24,000 bases of DNA from Sulfurospirillum sp. SCADC (GTDB taxonomy: Bacteria > Campylobacterota > Campylobacteria > Campylobacterales > Sulfurospirillaceae), in the NCBI RefSeq assembly GCF_000743525.1, contig NZ_JQGK01000018.1, positions 23,273 through 47,272 on the forward strand. The letters are read 5' to 3'. A program made the position numbers and the translations under genes. Under the pieces are notes generated by a model. It searched no databases, was not told the DNA's origin, and saw only the letters and a list, made by a program, of their open reading frames with translations. Shown here piece by piece: positions 1,882-24,000 of the stretch (position 1 is its first letter; each line of letters begins with the position of its first letter).

Positions 1882-3399
1882 TTACTTGACTGCAAACGTC
1901 GCTTTAAACTCGCTCAATGCCTTATGTAATAGCTCTTCAAGCTCTTTATCAATCGCTTTTTTAGCTTTAAGTTGTTCAAAAATATCTGCATACTTTGCTT
2001 CAACATAAGAGTTAAGTTCCACTTCAAAACGGCCTACTGATTTAACATCAATACTGTCTAAGTACCCTTTAGCGCCTGCAAAAATAATCAAAATCTGTTT
2101 TTCAACAGGAATTGGTGCATAAGGAGGTTGTTTTAAGAGTTCAACCATACGTTGACCACGCTCTAATTGTTTACGGCTTGACTCATCAAGATCACTTGCA
2201 AATTGTGCAAATGCTTGAAGCTCACGGTATTGAGCAAGGTCAAGTCTCATCGTACCTGCAACTTGTTTGGTTGCTTTAATTTGTGCCGCACCACCAACAC
2301 GAGAAACCGATAGACCGACGTTAATCGCTGGACGAATACCAGAGTTAAAGAGGTCTGATTCTAAGAAGATCTGACCATCGGTAATAGAGATAACGTTCGT
2401 TGGAATATACGCAGATACGTCGCCTGCTTGTGTTTCAATGATTGGAAGCGCTGTTAGTGAACCTGCACCTAATTCATCATTAACTTTCGCTGCACGCTCA
2501 AGAAGTCTGGAGTGTAGATAAAAAACATCACCAGGGTACGCTTCACGACCCGGAGGACGTCTGAGAATCAATGACATCTCACGGTAAGCAACCGCGTGTT
2601 TTGAAAGATCATCATACACGATTAACGCATGTTTGCCACTGTCTCTAAAAAACTCACCCATAGAAACACCTGCGTATGGAGCTAAGAATTGCATAGCAGC
2701 AGAATCACTTGCGCCCGCATTAACGATGATGGTGTATTCCATAGCGCCGTGTTCTTCAAGTTTTTTAACGACTTGAGCAACGGTTGATTGTTTTTGGCCA
2801 ATGGCTACATAAATACATGTAACGTTTTGACCTTTTTGGTTAATGATGGTATCAAGAGCAATGGTTGTTTTACCCGTTTGTCTATCACCAATAATCAGCT
2901 CTCTTTGACCTCTACCAATTGGCACAAGCGCGTCGATCGCTTTAATACCTGTTTGAAGTGGTTCATGAACGGATTTACGTGCCATAATACCGTGTGCTTT
3001 TTCTTCAACGAAACGTGTTTCAGTGGCGTTGATGGGACCTTTTGCATCAATAGGATCACCGAGTGAATTCACAACACGACCCACCAAGGCTTCACCAACA
3101 GGCACACGAAGAAGTTTTGCCAATCGTTTAACTGAAGAGCCTTCTTTAATCTCATTACAACTACCCAAAACAACGATACCTACACTTGATTCTTCAAGGT
3201 TAAGTGCCATGCCTCTCTCGCCATTTTCAAACTCAACCATTTCACCGGCCATAACGTTTTTCAAACCATAAACGTTTGCAACACCGTCAGCGACAGAGAT
3301 AACCTTACCTGTCTCTTCGATGTCCACATTGAGCTCAAAGTTTTCAATACGCTCTTTAATGATTGAACTGATTTCGTCAGCTTTCATTTTTGCTCCCAC
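1882..3399 (-). CDS. atpA: F0F1 ATP synthase subunit alpha
   Basis: 505 aa with Walker A GDRQTGKT and the alpha-type [16 protein letters not shown]-terminus. The GTG at 3399 sits 6 nt after AAGGAG. The ATG at 3387 is an alternative start. Confidence 0.95.
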
Positions 3400-3434
3400 A
3401 CATTACTCCTTAACTTTCTTTTATCTATTTATTA

Positions 3435-3965
3435 TTAAATTGCTTTCAAGATATGCTCTGTTAATTGAGCTTTAAGACGCTCAACTGAGAAACTCACTTC
3501 CACACCCAAATCATCTAACTCAACTTTAATACCCGGATAACTGTTTTTGTTTGCATCTAATTTAATTTTAGCATTAAACTTTTTACTGAAATTCTCTTCT
3601 AACATACTCACTTGTGCTGGACTCATTTTAAAGTTTGTTGAGACACTCCCTTCGTACGTATTGTTTTTTAAAGAGAGTTGGTATTTTAACTCTTTAGCAA
3701 CAACCGCAATCAAGGCAAGTCGATCGTTGTGGCTCAGTAATTTGATGAAATTTTGAAATTTCATATTTTGAGTTTCTACCAAAGAGAGTACTAATGCTTC
3801 TTTTGCGTTCACAGAGACATCTGGAGAGAGAATAATGTTATGAAACTTCTCTATCGTAAAGGCCCCAGCCAATTGCGTTAACAAACCATACACTTCTGTT
3901 AATTCCGCATCATTACAGCTGCTCATGAGCGCATTAACATATTTTTTTGCTATTGCTCCACTCAT
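3435..3965 (-). CDS. atpH: F0F1 ATP synthase subunit delta (OSCP)
   Basis: 176 aa. Size and position between atpF and atpA fit. It abuts the atpF stop. Confidence 0.85.
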   Translation of the reverse strand: MSGAIAKKYVNALMSSCNDAELTEVYGLLTQLAGAFTIEKFHNIILSPDVSVNAKEALVLSLVETQNMKFQNFIKLLSHNDRLALIAVVAKELKYQLSLKNNTYEGSVSTNFKMSPAQVSMLEENFSKKFNAKIKLDANKNSYPGIKVELDDLGVEVSFSVERLKAQLTEHILKAI

Positions 3966-4481
3966 TTAGGCAACCTTCTTATTGACAATTTTAACGATTT
4001 CGTCATTGTCTAAAGAGATAGAACCCTCTTTAAACATCTCATCTAAAACTTCACAAACAATGGCTCTTTGCATTTTACGACGCTCAATACTGACACGATC
4101 CTCAAAGGCTCTGCTCAAACTTTCAATTTCGACATCTGCGTCTTGTGCAACTTTATCGGCTAAAAGAAGTGCCTCTTTTTTAGCCGTTTCGACAATGACT
4201 CTTGCATTGGCTTTGGCCTCTTCGACTTTAGCAAGAGCAATCTCTTTTTTGCTATTTGACTCTTTCAATTTGACCTGAATCGAATCTAACTTCGTTGCGA
4301 TCTCATTTTTACGACCTATATACCACTGTTTTGCGGCATCTGCAACGTAATAGTACATAATCGCAGCAAAGATTAAAAAGTTGACAGCTCTTGGAAAAAT
4401 ATCCGTCGATCCGCCACTTTCACCACCGCTGGCTAAAAGCGCCATGGGAGCTAACAAGAGTAAAAAATAGTTTATTTTCAT
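3966..4481 (-). CDS. atpF: F0F1 ATP synthase subunit b
   Basis: 171 aa with an N-terminal hydrophobic segment followed by a long charged coiled-coil (KLKESNSKKEIALAKVEEAKANARV...). Operon position fits. Confidence 0.85.
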   Translation of the reverse strand: MKINYFLLLLAPMALLASGGESGGSTDIFPRAVNFLIFAAIMYYYVADAAKQWYIGRKNEIATKLDSIQVKLKESNSKKEIALAKVEEAKANARVIVETAKKEALLLADKVAQDADVEIESLSRAFEDRVSIERRKMQRAIVCEVLDEMFKEGSISLDNDEIVKIVNKKVA

Positions 4482-4492
4482 CCGTATACTCC

Positions 4493-4915
4493 TTAAATAT
4501 GGCTCAGTTTAGCAGCAACACTCTCTTTGAAAAGAGGCATTTGTGCCAACAGACCATTTTTAAACTCATCCTTTTCTGACTCTAAAGCCTTCAAGAACGT
4601 TACGCTTTGAGCTTCAAGATCACTCTTTTTTTGCTCAACTTTTTTGCCCGCTTTCTCTTTTGCCTCATTCAGTGCAGCTTCTCTAATTTTCGCTGCTTCC
4701 ATTTTTCCTTCAGACAAAATCGTCTCTACTTCTTGATAGTAGGCTACAACGTCACTGGCATTTTTCCCTGCATTTTCTAAATCACGATTAATAGAGTTAT
4801 TTCTATTGTCGATAAACTCCAGAAGGGGTTTGTAAAGCGTTTTGTTAAGAAGTATTAACATCACTAAAAACACAGTTCCAGTCACCAGTAACAGTGCTGG
4901 GATAATATCCAACAT
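4493..4915 (-). CDS. atpF': F0F1 ATP synthase subunit b' (second b-type stalk subunit)
   Basis: 140 aa with a single N-terminal TM helix (IIPALLLVTGTVFLVMLILL) and a charged helix. It is the first gene of the atp cluster, as in Campylobacter and Helicobacter. The RBS AAAGGAG lies upstream. Confidence 0.8.
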   Translation of the reverse strand: MLDIIPALLLVTGTVFLVMLILLNKTLYKPLLEFIDNRNNSINRDLENAGKNASDVVAYYQEVETILSEGKMEAAKIREAALNEAKEKAGKKVEQKKSDLEAQSVTFLKALESEKDEFKNGLLAQMPLFKESVAAKLSHI

Positions 4916-5001
4916 ATTTCTTGCTCCTTTAGCTCGAGATCAGACTCAATTTTTAAGATTTTTTAGCACAAACAAGATTGCTGTATCAAAATTTTGCGCG
5001 A

Positions 5002-5010
5002 ATTGTAACA
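5002..5010 (-). promoter_or_regulatory. Candidate extended -10 (TGTTACAAT) for the atp operon
   Basis: The minus strand reads ...TTTTCCTTTGCTGTGTTACAAT..., with a T-rich upstream tract, in the 139-nt gap between the parB stop and the atpF' start. This is sequence resemblance only. Confidence 0.35.
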
Positions 5011-5054
5011 CAGCAAAGGAAAATAGTTTATTAAATGAACCGACGCAACTCGTT

Positions 5055-5915
5055 TTATGACTTCAATTGCTCCAAAAAAGTATAAATTGCTTCACCGTTT
5101 TTAAAATGGATGGTAATGGTATTTGCTTTAGGTTTTGCCTCAAAGCCAAGCTCTTTTAGCCTGCTTGTGAGTGTTTGGAGCTCTTCAGGAATTGAGGGAA
5201 CGGTCTTTTCTACTTTACCAATTAACTCGTCACTACTTTTAAGCTTTTTCACTAACGCTTCGGTTTCACGGACACTGAGCTTTTGACCTAAAATGGTGTT
5301 GACAATCGTCTCTTCATCTTTAGGCTCAAGTCCTACCAAAACTTTGGCATGACCTTGGGAGAGAACACCTTCTGCAAGGTATTTTTTGGTTTGGTCGCTT
5401 AAGCTCAGCAACCGAATCGTGTTGGTGATTTGGGTTCGGCTTTTATGGATAATCTCAGAGAGTCCATCTTGCGTTATTTTATACTCTTCAATGAGTTCTT
5501 TATAAGCGATGGCAAGTTCAACGGGATTAAGATCTTCTCTTTGAATATTTTCAATCAGTGCTAATTCACGCAGATTCTTTGATTCGATGTCTGCAACAAT
5601 GGCTTTAATTTTTGTAAAGCCTGCTAGTTTGCTCGCACGTAAACGACGCTCACCTGCAAGAAGCATATAGCCATCATCTTTGGCAACCACAATGATGGGT
5701 TGGAGTAACCCATGGCGCTTAATCGATTCGCTAAGCTCTTTTAAAGCAACTTCATTAAAATGTGTTCGTGGTTGGTAAGGATTTGGGGTAATACGCTCAA
5801 TGGCAATGTCACGAACCAAATCTTTTGCTTGCTCAATATCTTGTTTGTATGCCTCTTCGACATCTTCGATAATCGCACTCAGTCCTCGTCCTAAAACCTT
5901 CTTTGCACTCATCAC
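5055..5915 (-). CDS. parB: Chromosome partitioning protein ParB/Spo0J
   Basis: 286 aa with the ParB motifs GLLQPIIV and LLAGERRLRA and an HTH region. The track start is a GTG at 5915, and an ATG follows at 5912. Confidence 0.9.
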   Translation of the reverse strand: MMSAKKVLGRGLSAIIEDVEEAYKQDIEQAKDLVRDIAIERITPNPYQPRTHFNEVALKELSESIKRHGLLQPIIVVAKDDGYMLLAGERRLRASKLAGFTKIKAIVADIESKNLRELALIENIQREDLNPVELAIAYKELIEEYKITQDGLSEIIHKSRTQITNTIRLLSLSDQTKKYLAEGVLSQGHAKVLVGLEPKDEETIVNTILGQKLSVRETEALVKKLKSSDELIGKVEKTVPSIPEELQTLTSRLKELGFEAKPKANTITIHFKNGEAIYTFLEQLKS

Positions 5916-5916
5916 G

Positions 5917-6702
5917 TTAACTCACTAAAATCGAATTGGCAAGATTTTGGTACGCTTTAGAACCTGGAGATTCTACATCGTATAAAATAATCGGTTTGCC
6001 AAAACTTGGGGATTCTGCGAGTTTGATATTGCGTGGAATGACCACATACGAAGCACTCTCTTTGTCCACAAACAGTTTGCTTTTAAAATGCTCTTTCAGA
6101 TCGGCAAAGACTTGTTTTGAGAGGTTGTTTTGGGTGCTATACATGGTCGGTAAAAAGCCTTTAATTTCCAGTGTCGGGTTAATCGTTTTTTTAATCAGTT
6201 TCACGGTATTGAGTAACTGCGCCAAACCTTCCAATGCAAAAAATTCGCACTGAATCGGGATAATCACAGAGTTTGCAGCACTCAGTGCATTAATTGTAAT
6301 GCTTCCAAGGGCTGGAGGTGAATCGATGATGATATAATCGTATTGATCTTTAATCTCTTCAATTTTCGTTTTCAAAATAAGCTCGCGACCCTTGGTATTG
6401 TTATCGTAAAACTCTTTTTCAACTCCCACAAGCCCAATATTCGATGGCGCTACATGTAAGGTTGAAAGTGACGTCTCAAGAATGACTTGCGAAAGACGTT
6501 TTCTGCCGATAAGCACGTGATAGATGTTGTACTCATAGTCGCTTCTGTGAAAACCAAGACCGGTTGTCGCATTGGCTTGAGGGTCAATATCGATCAATAA
6601 CACGCGCTTTTCAGCAACTGCTAAGGAGGCAGCCAAATTGATAGCGGTCGTTGTTTTACCAACACCACCCTTTTGATTTGCTATCGCTATAATCTCACTC
6701 AT
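5917..6702 (-). CDS. parA: Chromosome partitioning ATPase ParA/Soj
   Basis: 261 aa with the deviant Walker A NQKGGVGKTTTAINLA. It lies directly upstream of parB, and its start overlaps the birA stop (ATGA). Confidence 0.9.
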   Translation of the reverse strand: MSEIIAIANQKGGVGKTTTAINLAASLAVAEKRVLLIDIDPQANATTGLGFHRSDYEYNIYHVLIGRKRLSQVILETSLSTLHVAPSNIGLVGVEKEFYDNNTKGRELILKTKIEEIKDQYDYIIIDSPPALGSITINALSAANSVIIPIQCEFFALEGLAQLLNTVKLIKKTINPTLEIKGFLPTMYSTQNNLSKQVFADLKEHFKSKLFVDKESASYVVIPRNIKLAESPSFGKPIILYDVESPGSKAYQNLANSILVS

Positions 6703-7352
6703 CGTAAACTGTACACCTTTTTATTTTCTAGCTCTATAGAGCCATCATCACACAATATCGCGTCACGTAACGAGACCAATTTGCCATCCAAATGGAAAGA
6801 AAAGTTTCGATTTTGGTCAAATTCTATCTTATATTTACTAAAAACTTTCTTCCACGATATTTTTTCCTCAACCTTTGTAACTAAATCTTCGGCTAAAGCT
6901 TTGGGTGTAACGATAATATCTAAAGTCCCGAAATTTTCAGGTGCGCTACACAGATTAAGTCCGATAGAACCTACAATTGTAGCACCCGTTTTGGTGGTGA
7001 TCATTCCTCCAATTTTTTTCGTGTCACAGTAAAAATCATTGGGCCATTTTAGCCATACTGACGAGCCTTTTTCTTCTAAAATCTGCTTCACTAAAGCAGA
7101 AAAATAGATCGAAACAGAGGCTAATGGCAAATCGAGTGGTAACTGTTTCTCTTCGACACAAAATGAGAAAAAGAGATTTCCCGCTTTTCCAACCCAAGCG
7201 TTACCACGACTGCCCACCCCATTGGTTTGTGTCGTAGCACCGATGGCACATGGTGCAAGAAGTGTACCTTCGCGAAGCGAGGTGATGAGATGTTGATGCG
7301 TGGACTCTAAAGAATCAAACCAGTGTATCACCAATGTTAAGCCTTTTTCCAC
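6699..7352 (-). CDS. birA: Biotin--[acetyl-CoA-carboxylase] ligase (group I, no DNA-binding domain)
   Basis: 217 aa with the motif TNGVGSRGNAWV (GxGRxGxxW type) and DSLESTHQ near the N-terminus. The ATG at 7352 overlaps the fmt 3' end by 38 nt. In-frame TTG and GTG codons a few codons downstream would shorten the overlap. Confidence 0.85.
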   Translation of the reverse strand: MEKGLTLVIHWFDSLESTHQHLITSLREGTLLAPCAIGATTQTNGVGSRGNAWVGKAGNLFFSFCVEEKQLPLDLPLASVSIYFSALVKQILEEKGSSVWLKWPNDFYCDTKKIGGMITTKTGATIVGSIGLNLCSAPENFGTLDIIVTPKALAEDLVTKVEEKISWKKVFSKYKIEFDQNRNFSFHLDGKLVSLRDAILCDDGSIELENKKVYSLR

Positions 7353-8232
7353 GTATATAATCTACTGCACTCATCGCATTTTTGGAGATCGGCTGAAGGG
7401 TTTTAAGCAGCAAAGAACCCTTTTTACATGTAAGGATAATTCCCTCCGGTTTGATCGCTTGAATAACGCTACCAAGGGTATTTTCTTTGTCATCATGGTA
7501 TTCAAGCTCTAGCAGTTTTAGCCCCGATTCCAAGTAAAGTCCTGGCCAAGGAGAGAGTGCTTTAAAGCGTGTCACTATCGCTTGAGCACTTTGCTCAAAA
7601 GAGACTAAACCATCCTCTTTTTTGATCTTTTTACAATGGGTTGCATTAGCACTGATTTGGGTTAAAGGCGAGATGGAATGAAAATTTTCAAGGGTCACAA
7701 CGGTTAGTTTTGCCGCGAGTGTAGCAAGGGCATCAAACAAAAGTGTCGAAGTGTGTTTAGATTCAATTTTAAGGTATGAAAATCCAAGCATTGCACCCGT
7801 ATCAAGCCCCTCTTCTATAAGCATTGAGGTCACGCCTGCATAGGTTTCATTGGCTAAAAGGGTCGATTGAATCGGACTTGCACCTCGGTATTTTGGAAGC
7901 AGCGAAGCGTGAAGGTTGATGCAAGGCGCAATAGCAAGAATTGCTTTAGGCAAAATCTGACCGTATGCTGCCACTACGATAAAATCAGGCTTTAAGGCAG
8001 CAATCTTGGCGTGAGCTTCATCTCCTCGCAGTGATTTTGGCTGATAAATTTCTACATGTAAACCTTGTTCAAACAACCATGCTTTTGTATGTGGAGGTGT
8101 CAGTACCTGTTTTCGCCCGACGGGTTTGTCTTCTTGCGTCACCAAAAGCACCACTTCAATGTCAGAGTTTTTTAGAAGTGCTTCTAAAATCGTCGTGGCA
8201 TAAGAGGGAGTCCCCATAAAAACAATGCGCAT
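7315..8232 (-). CDS. fmt: Methionyl-tRNA formyltransferase
   Basis: MRIVFMGTP... with the motif HASLLPKYRGASPIQ. I place the start at the ATG at 8232, preceded by ACGAAGGATTAAG (RBS), rather than the track's upstream alternative start at 8262. Confidence 0.9.
   Translation of the reverse strand: MRIVFMGTPSYATTILEALLKNSDIEVVLLVTQEDKPVGRKQVLTPPHTKAWLFEQGLHVEIYQPKSLRGDEAHAKIAALKPDFIVVAAYGQILPKAILAIAPCINLHASLLPKYRGASPIQSTLLANETYAGVTSMLIEEGLDTGAMLGFSYLKIESKHTSTLLFDALATLAAKLTVVTLENFHSISPLTQISANATHCKKIKKEDGLVSFEQSAQAIVTRFKALSPWPGLYLESGLKLLELEYHDDKENTLGSVIQAIKPEGIILTCKKGSLLLKTLQPISKNAMSAVDYIRGKRLNIGDTLV
7423..7434. repeat. Iterated palindrome copy TTTACATGTAAG (11/12)
   Basis: Inside fmt, encoded as L-T-C-K. 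Confidence 0.9.
8051..8062. repeat. Iterated palindrome copy TCTACATGTAAA (11/12)
   Basis: Inside fmt, encoded as L-H-V-E. Confidence 0.8.
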
Positions 8233-8301: not shown

Positions 8302-9069
8302 TTACTTTTCACATGTAAAGAGTGTTCCACCTTTATGAACGCCCTCTAGCATATAACTTTTGACATCGCTTAAATCAAAACCATTCGCGATAAACATCGA
8401 TTTTTCACGCTCTAGCAAAAAGTCTGCCGCTTTGAGTTTGGTCACGATGCCGCCCGTTGCAAAAGCAAAATTGGCCGATTTCTCAACTTCCAATTCGCAA
8501 GGATCTATCGCATGGACAATTTTGCGCATCGTCGCATCGGCATGTTTGTGAGGGTCTTTGTCGTAGTAGCCATCAATATCGGAGAGTAAGATCAAAAGAT
8601 CCGCTCCAAAATAATACGCGACGCGTGAAGAGAGTTGATCGTTATCACCAAAAACAAGCTCTTCCGTTGCCGTCGCATCATTTTCGTTGATGATGGGGAG
8701 GATACCATTTTCAAGCAATGTGTCAATCGTACATTTCGCATGGTAACAGCGTTTTCGTGAGTCAAAATCATCCGCCGTTAAAAGCAGTTGCGCACCACTT
8801 TTCCCAAATTTTTCTAACTTTTTATTGTATGTAGCCATGAGTTGGGGTTGCCCAACAGCAGCAATGGCTTGGCGATTGTGCAATAATTTTTTATCCAACT
8901 TCAAAATGGAATAGCCAGCAGCCACAGCCCCCGAAGAGACTAAAATGACTTCATGCTTCTCCATCAGTGCGACTAAAAATTCCACCAAATTTAAAATGCG
9001 CTCTTTACATAAACGGTTTTGCTCGCTTAATACGTGCGTGCCAACCTTAACGACTACTCTTCTCATCAC
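8302..9069 (-). CDS. proB: Glutamate 5-kinase
   Basis: 255 aa with VVKVGTHVL and VSSGAVAAG, typical of the amino-acid kinase family. There is no PUA domain. It overlaps the obg 3' end by 23 nt. Confidence 0.9.
8308..8319. repeat. Iterated palindrome copy TTCACATGTAAA (11/12)
   Basis: Inside proB, in the last codons, encoded as F-T-C-E. Confidence 0.8.
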
Positions 9070-10182: not shown

Positions 10183-10228
10183 AATACCTTTAATCATTAC
10201 ATGTAAACGTATAATCATTAGAGGTATT
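10183..10228. promoter_or_regulatory. 46-bp imperfect inverted repeat in the obg upstream region (function unknown)
   Basis: AATACCTTTAATCATTA (10183-10199) pairs with TAATCATTAGAGGTATT (10212-10228) at 15 of 17 positions. It contains two copies of the 9-mer TAATCATTA spaced 21 bp apart and overlaps one iterated-palindrome copy. Confidence 0.6.
10196..10207. repeat. Iterated palindrome copy ATTACATGTAAA (11/12)
   Basis: Intergenic, between the rpmA terminator and the obg start. Confidence 0.9.
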
Positions 10229-10275: not shown

Positions 10276-10536
10276 TTATAAGCTTGCGGGGATAACAGAA
10301 ACTTTGTTTCTAATTTTATCTTTACGTTGGAATTGTACAAAACCATCGATTAATGCGTAGATCGTGTGATCAACACCGATGCCTACGTTATTTCCTACAT
10401 GTACTTTTGTTCCACGTTGACGAATAATAATATTGCCTGCGCGTACAAATTCACCACCAAATTTTTTAACACCCAGTCTACGTCCAGCTGAGTCTCTATT
10501 ATTCTGGGTACTTCCCTGACCTTTCTTGTGAGCCAT
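10276..10536 (-). CDS. rpmA: 50S ribosomal protein L27
   Basis: 86 aa starting [24 protein letters not shown], which is diagnostic of L27. Confidence 0.95.
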
Positions 10537-12633: not shown

Positions 12634-12645
12634 CTTACATGTAAG
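12634..12645. repeat. Iterated palindrome copy CTTACATGTAAG (10/12, itself a perfect 12-bp palindrome)
   Basis: Intergenic, 5 nt upstream of the candidate pyk extended -10. Confidence 0.9.
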
Positions 12646-12846: not shown

Positions 12847-13899
12847 ATGACAAACAGCATTCAACACTCTATTTTAATTTTTAACTATAACGAAGCGGTT
12901 CATGAGAATCGTAACAGTGTCTTATACAATACGATTATAGGACAACAGGCAATGCTCAAAGACAAAGGGATCAAAGGTGTACTTGTCTCCTTAAAAGATA
13001 CCCCTTATTCTCCTTTAACCAAAGAAGATCCCAACCTTGCGAATTTAGTCAAACAGCTTGAAAAACTAAGCCATAGGATTGATCTTCCCGTCGCCATTGG
13101 TGATTATAAACGCGATACGTTTGCCTATCTTAAAAAATTTAGTGCCAATACCTCGGTGAAACTCTTTCAAAACATTAATACAGCGATTCTCTTTTTTAAC
13201 CCAAAAGCCTTCAAAAAAGAGCTCGATGTCCTGATCTACGATGAAGATAAAGAAAATGCGGACAAAATTGCAATGGAACTCGGGAAAATGGGCTATTCCA
13301 TCGTTCATGCACGCAATGTAGAAGATTTTAAGATCAAAGCTTCTGCTAAAAAATACGATATGACCATCACGCACACGGCCATTAACCAAAATAGTACTAA
13401 AACACAGGCATCACAAGGGTTGGGACTTTCAAAACAGCTGGTGATGAATCTTCCTGTCTTTATTGACACCGCTGTGAATTCACTTGTGACGATTACAGGA
13501 CTTGAAGCGCAAAAAATCAAGCATGAAATCAGACCGTTTAATGAAAAAATTCCTCCTCATGTGATCATTGCGGCGATGAAATTTAAAGGTGATATTAGTG
13601 GTGTTTTCTTCCTTGTTTTTCCACGAGAGCTTGCCCTTGTAGCACTTGAAGCAATGTTAGGGGAGAGTCTGGAAGCCGATGATACGGCGTCAATTGTCGA
13701 TGGCGTTGCTGAATTTTGCAATATCATCACAGGATCAGCAAAAGTGACGTTCTCGGGTAAAAATCTTAAAGTTCTTTTTGAACTTCCTAAAACCTACCTA
13801 TCTGTGCAAGTTGCCCTGAGCGATACGTTAGGTTCCAATGGCGTTTGGATCGACATGCAACTGGATGAAAAACCTTTTTACATGTTTATTACCAAGTAA
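12847..13899 (+). CDS. CheX/CheC-family phosphatase-like protein with a roughly 200-aa N-terminal extension (includes a degenerate receiver-like segment)
   Basis: 350 aa. The C-terminal part (about 13444-13896) aligns by eye with CheX (GDISGVFFLVFPRELALVALEAMLGE) and carries DGVAEFCN-x21-P at 13699, matching the D/S-x3-E-x2-N...P active-site pattern. Residues 127-177 (VLIYDEDKENADKIAMELGKMGYSIVHA...) resemble the first half of a receiver domain but lack the phospho-Asp position. No Shine-Dalgarno sequence precedes the ATG, so the start is uncertain. Confidence 0.6.
   Translation: MTNSIQHSILIFNYNEAVHENRNSVLYNTIIGQQAMLKDKGIKGVLVSLKDTPYSPLTKEDPNLANLVKQLEKLSHRIDLPVAIGDYKRDTFAYLKKFSANTSVKLFQNINTAILFFNPKAFKKELDVLIYDEDKENADKIAMELGKMGYSIVHARNVEDFKIKASAKKYDMTITHTAINQNSTKTQASQGLGLSKQLVMNLPVFIDTAVNSLVTITGLEAQKIKHEIRPFNEKIPPHVIIAAMKFKGDISGVFFLVFPRELALVALEAMLGESLEADDTASIVDGVAEFCNIITGSAKVTFSGKNLKVLFELPKTYLSVQVALSDTLGSNGVWIDMQLDEKPFYMFITK
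13877..13888. repeat. Degenerate iterated palindrome TTTACATGTTTA (10/12)
   Basis: Inside the CheX-like gene, encoded as F-Y-M-F. This is the only copy in the third reading phase, and its TAA half is broken. Confidence 0.6.
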
Positions 13900-15115: not shown

Positions 15116-15565
15116 TCACGCTAAGATCAATCGCATCGGTTGCATCAAAGAATCGACAAACCCCAGCCGTTTGTAGAAGCGCTGTGCCGCATGATTGTGC
15201 GTGTCCGTTAAAAGAGTAATGCGTTTACATGTAAGCTTTTGAGCATGTTCTATGGCTGCCTCAACCAACCGTGTTCCGCATTTTTCTCCTCGAAATTGAG
15301 GCGCAATAATCATATCTTCCAAAAAGGCTACTTTTCCGCCAAGTGCTGTGCTGATCGTCCATAAAAGGCTTACCATTCCGATGATCTCACCCTCCTTTTT
15401 AAGCACAAAAATGGTTCCTATCGTGGCATCTTCTAGGATCATTTTAAGACCTGCGCGTTGAGCCTCAGGATGTGGCGTAAATTCAGCCTCTTGAGAAAAA
15501 AGGAGGGTTAATAAATCAATTAAAGACTCTATATCAGAGCTTTTTGCCTCTTCAACGCTAAACAT
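15116..15565 (-). CDS. GNAT family N-acetyltransferase
   Basis: 149 aa with an acetyl-CoA binding pattern (FRGEKCGTRLVEAAIEHA) and a ...AAQRFYKRLGF tail typical of GNAT. The RBS AGGAG lies upstream. Confidence 0.85.
   Translation of the reverse strand: MFSVEEAKSSDIESLIDLLTLLFSQEAEFTPHPEAQRAGLKMILEDATIGTIFVLKKEGEIIGMVSLLWTISTALGGKVAFLEDMIIAPQFRGEKCGTRLVEAAIEHAQKLTCKRITLLTDTHNHAAQRFYKRLGFVDSLMQPMRLILA
15224..15235. repeat. Iterated palindrome copy TTTACATGTAAG (11/12)
   Basis: Inside the GNAT gene, encoded as L-T-C-K. Confidence 0.9.
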
Positions 15566-16128: not shown

Positions 16129-16850
16129 CGTTTTTGCAAAATTAAGATGGTTTTATCAGGCTCGTCACCAAAGAGTGTGACGGGTTTGGTAGAACAGAGT
16201 TTAAATGCCTTGAGTTTTTTAAAAAACGAGAGTGGGTGAAAGTATTGGGTGATGACTCCCTCTTCTTTGCGGTAAAGCTTTCCCTCTTTTTCAAACAAAA
16301 CGATCTTTGTGACCAGCTCATGATTTTCAAAGGTTGCATCCACGCATAAAAACTGATCTTCCTTCTCTTGGCACATCACGCCTTCTGCCACGCCTTCAAA
16401 ACCATACAAGGTATTGACATCGCAGACAAAATAGCCATTTTGAGGCAGCACACGTGCAACCGCTTCTAAGAAAGCGTTTATCTCGGAAGGGGCAATGTAA
16501 TTTAGCACATCGGCAATCGCTACAACGCACTCAAACGAAGCCTCTTCCCATTCGTCTAGCTCTTTGGTACTCGCTTCCACCCCTAAAGCTCGTGCACGCT
16601 CGATCATGGCGACACTTCGATCAATTCCGCACGCACTGATCTGCTCATCTTTAAGATGCACAAGAAATCTGCCATTGCCACATCCCACATCCAAAATACG
16701 CTTTACATGTAAAGATTTGAGTAAACGCAAATAGGTCTGGTAGAGGGTTTCATACTGGGCATCAAAACCGATCAGCGATTCGATTTTGGCGTAAAGATCA
16801 AGAGGAGTTATCATGGGTACACTTTGGTTGGGGCTTTTTGAAAGCCCCAT
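16125..16850 (-). CDS. Class I SAM-dependent methyltransferase (substrate unknown)
   Basis: 241 aa with motif I ILDVGCGNGRF. The start is ambiguous between the ATG at 16850, which lies inside a hairpin, and the ATG at 16814 (MITPLDLY...). Neither has a clear Shine-Dalgarno sequence. Confidence 0.85.
   Translation of the reverse strand: MGLSKSPNQSVPMITPLDLYAKIESLIGFDAQYETLYQTYLRLLKSLHVKRILDVGCGNGRFLVHLKDEQISACGIDRSVAMIERARALGVEASTKELDEWEEASFECVVAIADVLNYIAPSEINAFLEAVARVLPQNGYFVCDVNTLYGFEGVAEGVMCQEKEDQFLCVDATFENHELVTKIVLFEKEGKLYRKEEGVITQYFHPLSFFKKLKAFKLCSTKPVTLFGDEPDKTILILQKR
16702..16713. repeat. Iterated palindrome copy TTTACATGTAAA (12/12; 14-bp palindrome CTTTACATGTAAAG)
   Basis: Inside the methyltransferase gene, encoded as L-H-V-K. 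Confidence 0.95.
16830..16848. other. GC-rich hairpin GGGGCTTT-TTG-AAAGCCCC just after the mqo stop
   Basis: 8-bp perfect stem. Coordinates are anchored to the ORF-track positions of the mqo stop (16857) and the MTase ATG (16850). No U-tract follows on either strand. Confidence 0.5.
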
Positions 16851-16856
16851 GAGATT

Positions 16857-18197: not shown

Positions 18198-18239
18198 GCT
18201 AAACAACTTCCTACTCTAAGATTTTAGGGTGTGACATTC

Positions 18240-18269: not shown

Positions 18270-18274
18270 AATTG

Positions 18275-18646
18275 TTACTTTACTGCAATAGCTTCGATCT
18301 CAACCAACGCATTTTTAGGCAATGTTTTGACACCCACGGTGCTGCGTGCAGGTTTGTGCTCTTTAAAAAATGCGCCATACACCTCATTGACTTTTGCAAA
18401 GTCGTCCATATTGGCTAAAAAAATGGTCGTTTTAACCACTTTTTTCAGACCACTACCGGCTTCTTTAAGCACGGCTTTGAGGTTTTCTAACACTTGGGTG
18501 GCTTGTGCTTCCACATCGCCTTCTAAAAAAGTACCATCGGGCTTAAGCGCGATTTGCCCAGAGGTAAACACCATATCGTTTACCACAATCGCTTGCGAAT
18601 ACGGACCAATGGCAGCGGGTGCATTGGTTGTCGAGACTATTTTCAT
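18275..18646 (-). CDS. ridA: RidA/YjgF family reactive-intermediate deaminase
   Basis: 123 aa with [11 protein letters not shown] and [23 protein letters not shown], typical of RidA. Its start overlaps the dapE stop (ATGA). Confidence 0.9.
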
Positions 18647-19755
18647 ACATCTTCCTTTTTGAAATTTTCAATGACAGATTTAAACACTTGGACGAGTGAT
18701 TCAACTTCGCTCATCGGACAACACTCATTGGGTGCGTGAATCGTATCGTTTACGACGCCACACTCAATCGTAGCAACCCCAAAAGCGCCAAAAAATCGCG
18801 CATCACTCGTTCCACCAGCCGTGGAGAGTTTGGGTGCTTTTGCGTTTACATGTAAAAGTGCTTTTTCAACAGCTTTGACAATCATAGAGTCTTTACATGT
18901 AACAAACGGATGCGCACTTTCACTCAAGTTGAGCGTAAAATCTAAGCCTTGCAGTAACGCTTCCACATAGGTACGAATTTTTGTACTATCGGTTTTGGTT
19001 GAGTTGCGTACATTAAACATAATCTTGAGATTACCAGGGGTAACATTGCTCACTTCCATACCACCACGAATGTCCGTGATAATGATCTGCGAAGAGGCAA
19101 AAAATTCGTCACCCTCATCCAAATAATGTCCTGCAAGTTGAGGAAGCAGAGGGGCTATTTGATGCACGGGATTGATGGTTTTTTCAGGATACGCCGCATG
19201 ACCTTGTTTACCCGTGATCTCAATCACCCCGTTAATGGAGCCACGACGCCCTACTTTAATCGCATCGCCAAAAACCTTCTCAGAAGTCGGTTCTGCCACG
19301 ATGACGTAGTCGGGTAAGAAAGAGCGACGCTCTAACTCTTTGATCACTTCAATCGTTCCATGCTTCGCATCACCCTCTTCATCGCTGGTTAAGATGGCAG
19401 AGAGGGTTCCATTAAAATGCGTCGTCTCGCGCAGCGCTTGCACGAATGCACAGACACCACTTTTCATATCTTGAGCACCTCTGGCATAGACAACACCCTC
19501 TTTAACGATAGGCTCAAACGGGTCACTTTCCCAACCATGCCCCGGTGGAACCACGTCAATATGCCCTGCAAAACAGAGGTGTGGGCCTTTTCCAAAACGT
19601 TTATATAAAAAAAGATTTTTAGTGTTTTCGACATTGAGCTCAATGACCTCAAAGTCAGTGAGGTACGCTTTAATGAAGGTGAAAGCACCGCCGTCATCGG
19701 GGGTGACTGAGACAAAGCGTAAAAGTTTTAAAAAAAGTTCGTGTGTTTTCAGCAT
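18643..19755 (-). CDS. dapE: Succinyl-diaminopimelate desuccinylase (M20 peptidase)
   Basis: 370 aa with M20 metal-binding motifs [19 protein letters not shown] and SDEEG, and a DapE-like length. Confidence 0.88.
18845..18856. repeat. Iterated palindrome copy TTTACATGTAAA (12/12)
   Basis: Inside dapE, encoded as L-H-V-N. Confidence 0.95.
18892..18903. repeat. Iterated palindrome copy TTTACATGTAAC (11/12)
   Basis: Inside dapE, encoded as T-C-K, 47 bp from the previous copy. Confidence 0.9.
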
Positions 19756-19829
19756 GATTCCTCTATTGTAAAAGAGTATTCTTTAGAGTTTATACTCATT
19801 TCTTGGTTATGATTCAATATCAAGTTTAT

Positions 19830-22031
19830 TTAAAGCTTGATCAATGTGGCACCATAACCACCCATATTGATCGGTGCATCGCCATACGAAACTAAAGAAG
19901 GATAGCTGCTTAAAAAGGTTCGCACCGCATAGGCGAGTTTTCCCGTTCCAATGCCATGATAAACCAACACCTCATCAAAGCCGCTCATCAGTGCGTCACT
20001 TAAAAATTTATCGAGTTTTTCAACCGCTTCATCGGCTCTGAGTCCATGCAGATCCAAAATCATTGAACCACTGGGTGTCTCTTTGGAGATCACCACACCT
20101 GATTTGTGCACTTTGGGTTGGTTGCCACTGCGTTTGAGTTTGGAGAGGGGAACACGAAGCGTAATGCCGTCGCACTCGATGGTCGCTTCTTCTTTTTTGA
20201 TGCTTTTAATCACCCCTTTAGAGCTTCCGTATTTGATTTTATCGTTTACATGTAAAGGTTCTGCTTTTTGATCGGGAATCACTTTACGTGTCTCTTGATG
20301 CAACTGGTTCGCTTTGTTGAGCAAGCGGTGCGACTCTTTGGTATCCGAACTCTTGATCGCCTTTTTGGCTTCGCCAATCGCTTGGTTGAACTCTTTGGAC
20401 ATTTTAGAGTACGCATGATCAAACTCTTCTCGCACGCGCTCTTTTTCATCGCGTAACGACTCTTTGAGTTTTTCCACTTCATGCAGTCTCGTATCAAGCT
20501 CTTCGGAGGTTTTGCGCATCTCAAGCTCTAAGTCGATGTTTTTTTGAATGAGCTCATTGAGTTTTTCTTTATCTTCGCCGTACAAAACACGCGCTTCGGC
20601 GACCAATGACTGCGGAATGCCATAACGAAGTGCCGTCTCAAACGCATAACTCCTGCCAATCGTCCCTTTTAAAAAGCCATACGTCGGACGCTCACTCTTT
20701 TCATCGTAAATCGCCGCTAACAGTTCGACTTCAGGGTGCGTGGCAAGCAAAGAGGCTAAGCGTTTATGGTGCGTGGTGATGACGATTTTCATCTCTTTAT
20801 CGATAAGCTTTTCGATCATCACTTTAAAGAGATTCGCCGCTTCATCGGCGTCTGTTCCAAGTTCGATCTCATCGACACCAATGAGTGCTACTTTTTTACC
20901 AAAGAGTTTACTAAACTCACTCATCCGCCCTGCAAAAGTGGAGATGTCATTTTTAACATTTTGCGGATCATCCAAAATCGCAAACACCTCTTTGAACGAA
21001 CCAATGCTCGAATGTTTCGCATCAATGCGCATCGGAAGAAGGTATTTACTCAAAATCGCCGCCGTCAAAATGGATTTAAGCAGCATCGTTTTACCACCGG
21101 CATTTACACCCGTGATCATCAAGACCTGTTTGCTAAAATCAATCGTAATCGGTTTGGGATTGGCAAGGGCAGGATGCGCAAAGTTTTCAAGTTTGATGGC
21201 ATTGGTTTTGGAGGGAAGCACAAACTCCATATCTTTTTCTCTGGCGTACGCGACTCTGGCATAGTACGCATCAAAGCGGTCAAACTCTTTGTTCACAAAC
21301 CCTAAAAATTTGAGCTGTTTGGTAAACACCGACGAGATTTGCTTCGCGTACTTGTACACCAACTCTTCTTTGCGGTCGATTAGTTCACTCTCACGACTCG
21401 CCAACTTTGCAAGCGCTTCGGGTACGACATAGAAAAAACCGCTGCTACTGCGCCCGATGACATTGCCTTTGAGGACATGGTTAAACCCACCACGTACCAA
21501 AAGTGCCTCTTGATTGTTGATGTAGTGAATTTGTTTATCGGCAAGGTAAAGAGCGATTTTTTCGGTCGAGATCAGACGGCGAAGCGTGCTGTTCATCTCC
21601 TCTTTGACCATTTTAAGGCTTTGAGCGATGCTCGCAAACTGTTCATCTACGCTGGATTTGAGCTCACCTTTTTCATCAAAATAAGCGCAAATTTGCGCGA
21701 CTTCGGCAGGGATGAGAATGCGCTCCATCCATTCGCCAAGGCTCTGGTCGTTCAGCATATGTTTAAGATACTGCATATAATTGATGATCTGTACAAACGC
21801 AAAAATCTCACTAAGACGCAAAATGCCCATTTTACTCAGGTGCATCAGTGCCACATCCAAAGAGGGAACTTCCGGCAAAGGCTTCAAGCGATCGCGTGTG
21901 AGCAGTTCATGGATCAATTTATAATGAAGATTCGCATCGCCCTCCATAAACAGAGGTTTTTCGCGCGCTAAAAAGTGTTTAAATCCGGTCGCATAATCGA
22001 CCAGATCGAGTTTTGAAAAAAGCTTTTCCAT
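19830..22031 (-). CDS. mutS2: Endonuclease MutS2 (MutS domain V ATPase plus C-terminal Smr domain)
   Basis: 733 aa with Walker A ITGVNAGGKT, a long coiled-coil linker and a C-terminal Smr motif LDLHGLRADEA...VYHGIGTGKL. Confidence 0.9.
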   Translation of the reverse strand: MEKLFSKLDLVDYATGFKHFLAREKPLFMEGDANLHYKLIHELLTRDRLKPLPEVPSLDVALMHLSKMGILRLSEIFAFVQIINYMQYLKHMLNDQSLGEWMERILIPAEVAQICAYFDEKGELKSSVDEQFASIAQSLKMVKEEMNSTLRRLISTEKIALYLADKQIHYINNQEALLVRGGFNHVLKGNVIGRSSSGFFYVVPEALAKLASRESELIDRKEELVYKYAKQISSVFTKQLKFLGFVNKEFDRFDAYYARVAYAREKDMEFVLPSKTNAIKLENFAHPALANPKPITIDFSKQVLMITGVNAGGKTMLLKSILTAAILSKYLLPMRIDAKHSSIGSFKEVFAILDDPQNVKNDISTFAGRMSEFSKLFGKKVALIGVDEIELGTDADEAANLFKVMIEKLIDKEMKIVITTHHKRLASLLATHPEVELLAAIYDEKSERPTYGFLKGTIGRSYAFETALRYGIPQSLVAEARVLYGEDKEKLNELIQKNIDLELEMRKTSEELDTRLHEVEKLKESLRDEKERVREEFDHAYSKMSKEFNQAIGEAKKAIKSSDTKESHRLLNKANQLHQETRKVIPDQKAEPLHVNDKIKYGSSKGVIKSIKKEEATIECDGITLRVPLSKLKRSGNQPKVHKSGVVISKETPSGSMILDLHGLRADEAVEKLDKFLSDALMSGFDEVLVYHGIGTGKLAYAVRTFLSSYPSLVSYGDAPINMGGYGATLIKL
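20245..20256. repeat. Iterated palindrome copy TTTACATGTAAA (12/12)
   Basis: Inside mutS2, encoded as L-H-V-N. Confidence 0.95.
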
Positions 22032-22038
22032 GAGGGCG

Positions 22039-22392
22039 TTACTTCACCTTTTCCAGTTTACATGTAGCCATATCGATCACAATACCTTTATCATTTGGGT
22101 TCTTGTCATTTGCAATAAAACTAAGCGTTCCACTCACAAACACAAACGTCTCCAACGAGATTTCACGCCCGTCGCAATAGAGTGTTTTACCCTGTTTAAA
22201 CGCACTGATCATCATGCGATTTGATTCACTGTTCTCACGATTATGGGCTTCATACCACCACGCAATCCCAATGAAAACCACCAGAAAAAGAAAAAGTCCT
22301 ATTTTTGCTTTGTGAGAGAATGTACTCTTTTTAGCATAGAGCACCGAAACAACCAGAAGTACCACCGCTAAAAAAAGTAAAAATTGCATCAC
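22039..22392 (-). CDS. Small hypothetical membrane protein (two predicted TM helices)
   Basis: 117 aa with hydrophobic stretches FLLFLAVVLLVVSVLY and IGLFLFLVVFIGIAWWY. The GTG or ATG start overlaps the murC stop (ATGTGATG), and the stop is 7 nt before the mutS2 start. Confidence 0.6.
   Translation of the reverse strand: MMQFLLFLAVVLLVVSVLYAKKSTFSHKAKIGLFLFLVVFIGIAWWYEAHNRENSESNRMMISAFKQGKTLYCDGREISLETFVFVSGTLSFIANDKNPNDKGIVIDMATCKLEKVK
22057..22068. repeat. Iterated palindrome copy TTTACATGTAGC (10/12)
   Basis: Inside the small membrane-protein ORF, encoded as A-T-C-K. Confidence 0.75.
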
Positions 22393-23699
22393 ATGGCTCC
22401 TCGAAGCTGATAGGTTATGTCCCCTGCGCCAAAACTGATCACCAACCCTTCATCAAAAATATGTTGGTTCGCTTCGCAAGGAAATATCTCTATACTATCA
22501 TTATTTCGGTAAACACGCGGTGGGAAAAGTGGCTTATAGCGTGCGAACTCTTTTTCAAAGTCGATAAAAACCTCTTTTTCCCCTGCACGCCACACAGGTA
22601 AAATCACGAGCTGATCGACCCCTTCAAAGCAGTTGACAAAACTTTGCAAATTATCAACCGTGCGTGAATATTTGTGTGGTTGCCAGATGGCAGTGATCTT
22701 TTTTAGCCCCATCAGAGCAGCATATTGTGTCGCAGACTCCAGTGTTGCTTTGATCTCGGTGGGGTGATGCCCGTAATCATCAATCAGTGCAAAGTTTTCA
22801 TGTTTGCTCAAAAGATCAAAACGTTTTTTGATGCCTTTGTACTGTTTGAGTTTCTCACGCGCCGTTTCCACATCCATCTCATGCAAGCTCGCCAAAATTG
22901 CCAGTGACGCATCCAGCGCCATATGAGCCCCTATTCCCCACACCTCAAAACAACCCAAATCTTTGAGCACAAAGGAGGTAAAAGGCTCACCATCACGCAT
23001 CACGGTTTTAATGTCGCTGATGTCACGACTTGGATAGAGACGATCAGCTTCAAGCTCCGTAAGCGTGCTTAAAAAAGGATCTTCCGCGTTAATGACGCGA
23101 ATCTTCGCACTCTCCAAAAAGTGTCTGTAAGCCCCATAAAATCGGTCATAATCGTAGTTATAATACTCCATATGTTCCGGCTCTGCGTTGGTGACAATCG
23201 CGATGTAGGGATTGGAATTTAAAAAGCTCGCATCACTCTCATCGGCTTCAAAAATGACATTATTGCCCTCTTTGTAGTACATGTTTGAGCCATACTGCTT
23301 GCTCTCCGCACCAATGACCAAAGAGCCCTCGACCATCGAAGCGAGCATCGCACTGGTCGTACTTTTGCCATGCGCTCCACAGACGGAGAAAACACGTCTG
23401 TTTTTTAAGATAAACAAAAGCGCCTCACGACGAGGCATGATCGTCATTCCTTTTTCACGTGCACGTACAAGTTCGATGTTATCGGGTTTAATGACCGCAG
23501 AAAAAACGACCAAATCTTGGTCAGTAATGCACGCAGGATCGTGTGGAATATGCACAGGAATGCCCATCTCTTCGAGCCCTGCGGTAATTTTGCTTGCTTT
23601 CACATCGGAGCCTGTGATTTCGTAGCCCTCTTGTTTTAAATATTTAGCTAAGGCAGAAAGCCCAATGCCACCAATGCCTACAAAATGAACTTTTTTCAA
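22389..23699 (-). CDS. murC: UDP-N-acetylmuramate--L-alanine ligase
   Basis: 436 aa with VHFVGIGGIGLSALA and the Mur ligase P-loop GAHGKSTT. The start is a TTG at 23699, with AAGGA 6 nt upstream. Confidence 0.93.
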   Translation of the reverse strand: MKKVHFVGIGGIGLSALAKYLKQEGYEITGSDVKASKITAGLEEMGIPVHIPHDPACITDQDLVVFSAVIKPDNIELVRAREKGMTIMPRREALLFILKNRRVFSVCGAHGKSTTSAMLASMVEGSLVIGAESKQYGSNMYYKEGNNVIFEADESDASFLNSNPYIAIVTNAEPEHMEYYNYDYDRFYGAYRHFLESAKIRVINAEDPFLSTLTELEADRLYPSRDISDIKTVMRDGEPFTSFVLKDLGCFEVWGIGAHMALDASLAILASLHEMDVETAREKLKQYKGIKKRFDLLSKHENFALIDDYGHHPTEIKATLESATQYAALMGLKKITAIWQPHKYSRTVDNLQSFVNCFEGVDQLVILPVWRAGEKEVFIDFEKEFARYKPLFPPRVYRNNDSIEIFPCEANQHIFDEGLVISFGAGDITYQLRGAM

Positions 23700-23723
23700 C
23701 CAATATCCTTATCTATTTTTTAT

Positions 23724-23794
23724 ACGCTTTCCAAGCTAAGCTTGAAAAGCTACGCTGCGCTGTGCGCTAAAGCTTGCCTTTTGCAAGGCAGAAA
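23724..23794. repeat. Structured intergenic element, copy B (homologous to 10591-10665)
   Basis: Has the same ordered conserved blocks as copy A. Hairpins at 23726-23750 and 23775-23790 occupy the positions of the copy A hairpins but use different stem sequences. Confidence 0.6.
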
Positions 23795-23810
23795 TGGTAC
23801 CGCTTTACTC

Positions 23811-23822
23811 TTTACATGTAAA
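23811..23822. repeat. Iterated palindrome copy TTTACATGTAAA (12/12; 14-bp palindrome CTTTACATGTAAAG)
   Basis: Intergenic, 12 nt after the aminotransferase stop and next to structured element copy B. Confidence 0.95.
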
Positions 23823-23833
23823 GCTACGCTTTT

Positions 23834-24000
23834 CTAGAAAGAGGCGATAACCTCTTTGATCTCTTTTAAGATCTGCTCTGTTTTTTCACTGTTTTCCACA
23901 AGTGCGATACGCACATAATGCTCGCCGATGCCGCCGCGTCCTAGAAAACGACCCGGTAGTACTTTGATATTTTTTTGCTCATACAGTTTACATGTAAAGA
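23834..24000 (-). CDS. PLP-dependent aminotransferase (class I/II), C-terminal 55 codons only
   Basis: Manual reverse translation gives ...FTCKLYEQKNIKVLPGRFLGRGGIGEHYVRIALVENSEKTEQILKEIKEVIASF*, stop at 23834-23836. The PG..F......YVRIALV pattern is typical of aminotransferase C-termini. A DapC-like role is a guess based on proximity to dapE. Confidence 0.6.
   Translation of the reverse strand, partial: FTCKLYEQKNIKVLPGRFLGRGGIGEHYVRIALVENSEKTEQILKEIKEVIASF
23987..23998. repeat. Iterated palindrome copy TTTACATGTAAA (12/12)
   Basis: Inside the aminotransferase gene, encoded as F-T-C-K. Confidence 0.95.

Follow-up and report, generated by a model that had tools for sequence, protein, structure and literature searches.

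An 8-bp palindrome, TACATGTA, usually in the form TTACATGTAA, was first noticed in a 24,000-nucleotide stretch of Sulfurospirillum DNA (hereafter, the window); in Sulfurospirillum and in some related sulfur bacteria it occurs about 50 times more often than expected by chance, in genes and spacers alike. The palindrome is apparently a hyper-abundant short genomic word in a new phylum, the Campylobacterota, and an undescribed counterpart of highly iterated palindrome 1 (HIP1) and of the uptake sequences of Neisseria (DNA uptake sequence, DUS) and Haemophilus (uptake signal sequence, USS). By analogy with these words, and with slightly less than even confidence, we read it as a highly iterated palindrome that would act as a HIP1- or DUS-like self-tag, with DNA exchange as the favored role. 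The initial annotation of the window had taken the motif for an iterated signal that spans the genome, like DUS, USS, and HIP1, and this central claim is supported by the results below.

In the window lineage, the 8-mer TACATGTA is the unit, TTACATGTAA is its 10-mer extension, and TTTACATGTAAA is its 12-mer extension. The window (41.3% GC) holds 18 copies of the hexamer ACATGT, compared to 6.7 in dinucleotide shuffles (standard deviation 2.8, maximum 16), and 10 exact copies of TTACATGTAA, compared to 0.02 in the shuffles (maximum 1). Five sites are exact copies of TTTACATGTAAA, and 14 match it with two or fewer mismatches, where 2.7 are expected. Among palindromic 8-mers of the window, TACATGTA is by far the commonest (15 copies), followed by TTTTAAAA (6 copies). 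Our recount agrees with the initial annotation in the number and start positions of the ACATGT hexamers, in the number and coordinates of the exact 10-mers, and in the numbers of exact and near matches to the 12-mer; its estimate of about 40% GC was also adequate. Other details needed correction. The flanking word CGTTTACA does occur at 15222, 18843, and 20243, but TGTAAACG starts at 10202 rather than 10201, and the proposed 16-mer consensus, CGTTTACATGTAAACG, has zero occurrences; the base beyond the 12-mer is merely "not A," and the sequence information of the motif stops at about 10-12 bp. The three intergenic regions that had been counted stand, but the exact 10-mers occupy six genes, not nine. 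A distribution over both coding strands was overstated: nearly all of the genes are on the minus strand, and the plus-strand case is a single degenerate copy in cheX.

The excess persists in a merged region of 41,044 bp, which consists of the window and 17 kb of flanking sequence from the same contig (DIGH01000021.1, 81.8 kb, of the metagenome-assembled genome, or MAG, GCA_002419535.1, which derives from a hydrocarbon metagenome; the window is the reverse complement of a part of it). This region contains 30 ACATGT, 23 TACATGTA, 17 TTACATGTAA, and 8 exact 12-mers, where an order-3 Markov model predicts 0.41 copies of TACATGTA. The atp/parAB block is sparse, as had been noticed at the outset: no exact 10-mer lies between merged positions 24599 and 34565, and the atp/par/exbBD block is a genuine low-density stretch. 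Shuffling of synonymous codons within genes, which leaves the proteins unchanged, yields 0.85 genic 10-mers, compared to the 11 observed, and codon usage and peptide motifs therefore fail to explain the excess. Within genes, the motif is read about equally in two frames, as x-T-C-K and as L-H-V; the third frame contains TAA. The corresponding tripeptides are themselves in excess (TCK, 8 compared to 0.47; LHV, 9 compared to 1.65), and all 11 Thr-Cys dipeptides, which account for about one-tenth of the cysteines of the region, are encoded by ACA-TGT. About two thirds of the copies lie within genes, without strong bias in within-gene position, and intergenic DNA is enriched about 3-fold by crude gene calls. 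Six of the 17 exact 10-mers fall in the approximately 4% of the merged region that is intergenic, and several intergenic 10-mers lie 9-31 nt past a stop codon.

Sequences flanking the copies are unrelated to each other, no stable or shared hairpin was obtained when the six intergenic copies were folded with 45-nt flanks, and orthologous loci that lack the motif mostly align without gaps and carry substitutions instead. These results rule out a mobile element, a duplication, and a terminator, the first two of which had already been discounted in the initial annotation. A terminator or hairpin role was rejected because there is no common fold around the intergenic copies, and an element of the repetitive extragenic palindrome (REP) or miniature inverted-repeat transposable element (MITE) type was rejected because conservation is confined to the core and motif-less orthologues are mostly ungapped. 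Instead, the motif is shown to arise by point substitution, in genes and in spacers. An artefact of codon usage, of a conserved peptide motif, of a mobile element, or of an error in MAG assembly has the genic majority of copies in its favor and nothing else. The codon shuffle, the use of two frames, the existence of intergenic copies, and the unrelated flanks all stand against it, and the finished genome of an isolate, S. barnesii SES-3, has the same sites. Thus, we conclude that these explanations are refuted, and we give them next to no probability.

An excess confined to the window would have refuted the initial annotation by its own criterion, but the enrichment reaches beyond the window and its 17-kb flanks. 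At the syntenic locus of the finished S. barnesii SES-3 genome (0.50-0.52 Mb of 2.51 Mb), there are 15 copies of TACATGTA in 22 kb. A second, unrelated region of 22.7 kb, from S. barnesii or a near-identical strain (its contig encodes an AddA-like protein identical to that of S. barnesii), contains 15 TACATGTA, 14 exact 10-mers, and 8 exact 12-mers in a setting that includes a cbb3 oxidase operon, addBA, rplM-rpsI, and purT. Metagenome contigs were picked by a scan for motif pairs, and the 36 prokaryote-like contigs that were retained (208 kb) carry 5.6 copies per 10 kb after the ascertained pair is discounted. These motif-dense contigs encode nuo subunits, chemoreceptors (methyl-accepting chemotaxis proteins), an autotransporter, a GGDEF protein, a DEAD helicase, and AddAB. 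A density of about 6 per 10 kb would extrapolate to approximately 1,400-1,700 copies per 2.5-Mb genome, which is in the range of USS, DUS, and HIP1. About two thirds of the hits in the metagenome scan were low-coding repeat families, especially from metagenome Ga0209679.

The Ga0209679 subset (about 30 contigs among L129-L207, 129 kb; loci and contigs are designated L plus a number) has only 18 open reading frames (ORFs) of at least 150 aa and contains a dispersed repeat family with TTACATGTAA(AA) and TTTGCAAATGTTTT; these repeats are probably eukaryotic and unrelated to the bacterial motif. The densest stretch, L247:2458-9787 on a metagenome contig of 33% GC (18 TACATGTA in 11.4 kb), runs across AddB- and AddA-like genes, and its AddA shares 42-65% identity with proteins of the Campylobacterota. 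In S. barnesii, addBA carry five motif copies in 5 kb. The density in addAB recalls the reported bias of DUS toward genome-maintenance genes, in numbers that are too small to bear it out.

The distribution of the motif among relatives was surveyed in 66 loci of at least 9 kb, which comprise the Obg loci of 65 relatives and the merged region. In about 28 of the 66, TACATGTA stands out from all other palindromes (Poisson p 1e-5 to 1e-32), and these enriched loci belong to most Sulfurospirillum, to one Sulfurimonadaceae clade, and to L032. The motif is absent from the Obg loci of Nitratiruptor, Sulfurovum, Nitratifractor, and another Sulfurimonas clade, and several Sulfurospirillum sublineages, including the nearest relatives of the window (L006-L008), lack significant enrichment. 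The L006-L008 clade, L017, L023, and S. cavolei count as independent losses. Enriched relatives (L009 and L011-L014) retain 67-78% of window sites at orthologous positions, compared to 16-26% for any 8-mer, and S. barnesii keeps 10 of 13 sites against a background of 20% (P = 2e-5). By contrast, the non-enriched and less diverged L006 and L007 retain two of six and two of 11 sites, respectively, at a background of 28-39%, and most of the sites missing there were lost by a single substitution. In enriched lineages at a greater distance, hardly any positions are shared. Because retention is high in enriched lineages and at or below background in the nearest non-enriched clade, and because positions are unshared at a distance, we conclude that the motif is kept where its driver exists and decays where that driver is gone, with turnover of sites over long periods. 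Lineages also vary at the third base of the flank: the S. barnesii group has T, the Sulfurimonadaceae have C, and the S. arcachonense group differs from both. Such lineage forms (TTTACATGTAAA for the S. barnesii group, CTTACATGTAAG for the Sulfurimonadaceae) resemble the dialects of DUS.

An intermediate state was seen in L019 (Sulfurospirillum cavolei NBRC 109482), which has 17 ACATGT in 21 kb and only four perfect TACATGTA. Its one-off forms at the outer bases are TACATGTT (four times), GACATGTT (three times), and CTTACATGTTAA (twice), and the motif at this locus could be in decay or could be changing its specificity. Other palindromes are in excess elsewhere in the survey: ATCATGAT in L043 (12, compared to 1.5 expected), CGATATCG in L052 (14, compared to 3.9 expected) and L060 (10), and TTGGCCAA in L041 (10, compared to 2 expected) and L040 (8). 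These three have restriction-site-like cores and are weaker than TACATGTA, which suggests that the phenomenon is general in the phylum.

The recognized unit was defined by comparison of an enriched pool of 27 loci (510 kb) with a control pool of 35 non-enriched Campylobacterota loci of similar GC (508 kb). The perfect 8-mer TACATGTA occurs 235 times in the enriched pool and 9 times in the control pool, and the perfect 10-mer TTACATGTAA occurs 125 and 5 times, respectively. By contrast, the 12 classes of one-mismatch 8-mers together occur 189 and 187 times. Tolerance is seen only at the outermost position of the 10-mer, where CTACATGTAA is found 50 times in the enriched pool. Because perfect copies differ between the pools while one-off variants are equal, constraint falls on the perfect 8-bp palindrome, for which T/A flanks are preferred and which has no halo of one-off copies. 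By our own reckoning, a simple mutation-fixation balance fits these counts if a perfect site has a scaled advantage of about 3 and a one-off has none. The pools and the orthologous alignments thus show a DNA-level force that is restricted to the perfect 8-mer and has been lost in several sublineages. ACATGT occurs 327 times in the enriched pool, compared to 117 expected, and 68 times in the controls, compared to 93 expected. CATG is mildly under-represented everywhere (observed/expected about 0.6-0.8), in enriched and non-enriched lineages alike, and was rejected as a discriminating signal. A transcription-factor operator was also rejected, because about two thirds of the copies are genic and one-off variants show no excess.

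The remark in the initial annotation that the core contains CATG proved useful, because this tetramer is methylated in a close relative. In S. barnesii SES-3, M.Sba3II (Sulba_2268) is a Type II enzyme that forms N6-methyladenine (m6A), and 99.1% of CATG sites are modified (Blow et al. 2016, PMC4752239); no restriction partner of M.Sba3II is listed (PMC4752239 supplements). The core of every motif copy is therefore almost certainly methylated in S. barnesii. For Sulfurimonas denitrificans, too, a CATG m6A enzyme is listed, and 44.9% of the sites are modified (PMC4752239). A regular-expression search for methyltransferase catalytic motifs in all loci returned seven weak candidates, including L155 (a 995-aa ORF with NPPY), and a candidate on the motif-rich contig L191 was a false positive, namely a ketoacyl synthase.

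A palindrome that includes the site of a solitary methyltransferase might also be a functionless footprint of biased repair, in which near-cognates are converted to the perfect palindrome, as in Elhai's model for HIP1. The sharp specificity for the perfect site and the single-substitution decay where enrichment was lost agree with such a footprint, and the patchy distribution would suit the gain and loss of one enzyme. We nevertheless consider this explanation improbable. One-off variants, the source of any such conversion, are not depleted (189 compared to 187), and neither is the deamination-type variant TATATGTA (24 in the enriched pool, compared to 19 in the controls). Because this C-to-T one-off is undepleted, there is no Vsr-like footprint, and a signature of Vsr-type repair was rejected. 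Moreover, the known mark, m6A, yields no mismatch by deamination, lineage-specific sites are often three to five positions away from the orthologous sequence rather than one, and a repair enzyme of this kind was not found.

Among known words, the closest resemblance is to HIP1 (GCGATCGC) and the alternate HIPs of cyanobacteria. These words too are perfect 8-bp palindromes. Their excess over expectation is tens-fold or greater, with roughly one copy every 1-2 kb, and they are found both within and outside coding sequences; they spread by substitution and not by insertion, are conserved at orthologous positions, have a patchy phylogeny with independent losses, deviate mostly at their outermost bases, and have a core that is the target of a solitary methyltransferase, as reported for the CATG core of TACATGTA in S. 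barnesii only (Elhai 2015, PMC4390886; Xu et al. 2018, PMC5861425; bioRxiv 10.64898/2026.06.24.733823). Unlike HIP1, TACATGTA is A/T-rich, has a CATG core, and belongs to the Campylobacterota, and its known core mark is m6A at CATG, whereas one of the two internal methyltransferase sites of HIP1 is CGATCG, in which the first cytosine is methylated (Elhai 2015). Of the features of the HIP class, a many-fold excess, dispersal over coding and non-coding DNA without conserved flanks, and conservation above background are found here.

DUS and USS are likewise located both within genes and in spacers and are scarcer in the most constrained genes; they vary as lineage dialects in their flanking bases and have a copy density of the same order as that of TACATGTA. 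They also shape the proteome through over-represented tripeptides (cf. Findlay and Redfield 2009, PMC2817400), and TACATGTA shares with them the character of a hyper-abundant 9-12-mer that shapes coding sequences. Unlike TACATGTA, DUS and USS have many partly functional one-off copies and often form terminators as inverted pairs; neither these features nor sequence asymmetry is found for TACATGTA. The hosts of DUS and USS have demonstrated sequence-biased uptake, whereas such uptake is putative for Sulfurospirillum. In the same phylum as TACATGTA, the CtsM site of C. jejuni, RA(m6A)TTY, is likewise a palindrome that is adenine-methylated by a solitary methyltransferase, and the methylated site marks self DNA for import (PMC10046745); such a role for TACATGTA would be by analogy. 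RAATTY differs from TACATGTA in being a degenerate 6-mer. We know of no report that RAATTY has been driven to a HIP-like excess.

In the DNA-exchange role that we favor, a factor with 8-bp specificity would read the tag, which is probably methylated, on incoming or recombining DNA. Tagged fragments would then be taken up or recombined preferentially, in parallel to methylated RAATTY in C. jejuni and methylated HIP1 in cyanobacteria, and this bias, or selection for it, would accumulate and maintain the tag. This role is favored because C. jejuni imports DNA only if it is methylated at RAATTY (PMC10046745), because methylation of HIP1 boosts cyanobacterial transformation >100-fold, possibly in part by a Chi-like effect (bioRxiv 10.1101/2024.09.10.611283), and because biased uptake or recombination would give a per-site drive that overrides protein constraints. 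A strand or replichore skew of the Chi type is impossible for TACATGTA, because the motif equals its own reverse complement, and none of the orientation that marks Chi is present; an orientation-independent Chi-like effect is compatible with the data. It is possible, if doubtful, that the Campylobacterota evolved a HIP system of their own, separately from the cyanobacteria, in which a solitary Type II-like methyltransferase and a reader produce a methylated barcode that gates or boosts DNA exchange between conspecifics. If so, other clades may carry replacement palindromes, for which ATCATGAT, CGATATCG, and TTGGCCAA are candidates, and "methyltransferase plus reader gives self-tag" may be a general, recurrent principle.

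Several points weigh against the self-tag reading. The methylation data come from the relative S. barnesii and not from the MAG of the window, and the S. barnesii methylome lists no motif specific for ACATGT or TACATGTA (PMC4752239). Outside the 8-mer, CATG has an observed/expected ratio of about 0.6-0.7 in enriched and non-enriched lineages. Because this under-representation is equal with or without enrichment, CATG methylation by itself cannot define the tag or account for an excess that is specific to 8 bp, and therefore a separate reader was postulated; the reader, a receptor, and an 8-bp-specific enzyme are all postulates. Classical DUS and USS are non-palindromic and have a one-off halo, which TACATGTA lacks. 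Finally, spacing of the copies is random, with a gap coefficient of variation of 0.88, compared to 0.90 for random placement, in a small and partly non-independent sample. Close pairs are in excess (37 gaps of <300 bp, compared to 23), and the quasi-periodic spacing reported for HIP1 was not detected in this small sample of gaps.

Random spacing also argues against a second reading, in which the copies are sites for an abundant chromosome-organizing protein, comparable to Noc, SlmA, MatP, or a ParB paralogue, that has no part in DNA exchange; selection would preserve about a thousand perfect sites for the sake of nucleoid structure or the control of division. A perfect 8-bp palindrome suits a dimeric DNA-binding protein, the alternating pyrimidine-purine tract of TACATGTA is flexible, and orthologous positions are conserved, including those in intergenic spacers. 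Proteins that read the motif also exist, as indicated by phage 10-mer arrays beside helix-turn-helix (HTH) or small-terminase genes. We regard this reading as unlikely, since the known systems have tens of sites rather than about 1,500 and tolerate mismatches, where no one-off excess is seen here. In addition, most sites are genic and force Cys and His into proteins, and no regional bias was seen: the S. barnesii copy of the window locus, near 0.5 Mb in a genome of 2.5 Mb, is as dense as the addAB region.

The phage arrays bear on a third reading, that the motif mimics a phage, gene transfer agent, or restriction-related site (e.g., pac) and was spread by preferential packaging and transduction. 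In support, viral TTACATGTAA arrays directly adjoin small-terminase genes (L118, L110; PF03592). These IMG/VR arrays are, however, tight clusters, spaced at 11-26 nt and embedded in longer repeat units (e.g., TCTTACATGTAAGAAGT), on contigs of 47-48% GC, and nothing links them to Sulfurospirillum, where the sites are single and dispersed. We consider this reading very unlikely; the viral arrays look like pac, operator, or iteron-like sites, which would be a different use of the same palindrome.

No earlier description of the motif was found in a literature on the motif itself, on iterated palindromes and uptake sequences in the Epsilonproteobacteria, and on Sulfurospirillum methylomes, in which subscription journals were thinly covered, so that a prior mention is possible; the HIP literature that was found concerns cyanobacteria only. 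To our knowledge, short words in about a thousand copies per genome occur in few bacterial groups, namely the Neisseriaceae, the Pasteurellaceae, and the cyanobacteria, and the purpose of HIP1 is still debated. TACATGTA is a further, independent case from a different phylum, in which natural loss-of-enrichment lineages stand beside enriched ones and the flanks vary as dialects between lineages. S. barnesii SES-3 is cultured and has a finished genome and a published methylome, and these properties together make the question directly testable by comparative genomics and experiment. The motif also forces Cys and His residues into proteins and, as a k-mer, gives a strong taxonomic signal that is of use in binning. 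Should the transformation idea prove right, the self-tag could offer a route to genetic tractability of organohalide- and arsenate-respiring bacteria.

Table. Copies of the motif in the window and viral arrays of its 10-mer form. Coordinates are window positions unless an L number is given; peptide readings are for genic copies.
Feature	Coordinates	Peptide read	Remark
TACATGTA in atpA	2814..2821	V-T-C-I	outer flanks degenerate
TACATGTA in parA	6451..6458	L-H-V	
Exact TTACATGTAA in fmt	7424..7433	L-T-C-K	conserved in L009-L013
TACATGTA in fmt	8053..8060	L-H-V	protein segment variable among relatives
One-off copy TTCACATGTAAA in proB	8308..8319	F-T-C-E	
Exact TTACATGTAA, rpmA-obg spacer	10197..10206		conserved in >10 relatives including S. 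barnesii
TACATGTA in rpmA (L27)	10396..10403	V-H-V	conserved in S. barnesii
Exact TTACATGTAA, divergent pyk/cheX intergenic region	12635..12644		
Degenerate copy TTTACATGTTTA, end of cheX	13877..13888		cheX is a plus-strand gene
Exact TTACATGTAA in GNAT acetyltransferase gene	15225..15234	L-T-C-K	
Exact TTTACATGTAAA in S-adenosylmethionine (SAM)-methyltransferase gene	16702..16713	L-H-V-K	10-mer core in 7/8 aligned relatives; L016 has CTACATGTAA
Exact TTTACATGTAAA in M20 peptidase gene	18845..18856	L-H-V-N	
Exact TTACATGTAA in M20 peptidase gene	18893..18902	V-T-C-K	47 nt from preceding copy
Exact TTTACATGTAAA in mutS2	20245..20256	L-H-V-N	no copy at the orthologous position of S. barnesii or of L011, hence a lineage-specific site
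TACATGTA near 3' end of 117-aa ORF	22059..22066	A-T-C-K	
Exact TTTACATGTAAA, spacer upstream of murC	23811..23822		12 nt past aminotransferase stop codon
Exact TTTACATGTAAA in aminotransferase gene	23987..23998	F-T-C-K	conserved in S. barnesii
Viral arrays	L118:600-950, L110:9480-9520, L109:1200-1430, L106:3598-3667, L101:5667-5780, L094:358-545		beside PF03592 small-terminase or HTH gene

Placement by relatives retrieved with Obg and MutS2 puts the host MAG in Sulfurospirillum near S. barnesii, with a MutS2 identity of 89%. The window contains atpFFHAG, parAB, birA, fmt, proB, obg, rpmA, rplU, pyk, and cheX, and further encodes an S41 protease, a GNAT protein, a SAM-methyltransferase, mqo, an M20 peptidase, mutS2, and murC. 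No canonical parS (TGTTTCACGTGAAACA) was found near parAB (window positions 5055-6702 and surroundings); the sole match with three or fewer mismatches, at 631-646, is at chance level, and the idea that the motif is a parS variant was rejected. Outside the window, a 42-codon ORF at merged positions 1188-1316 (L001) lies between ileS and gatA and overlaps both, and its position is kept in S. barnesii (L248:1352-1480). Throughout its copies (2814-23997), TACATGTA is a strictly alternating pyrimidine-purine tract whose TA, CA, and TG steps are the most flexible dinucleotide steps, and this flexibility may matter to whichever protein reads the motif.

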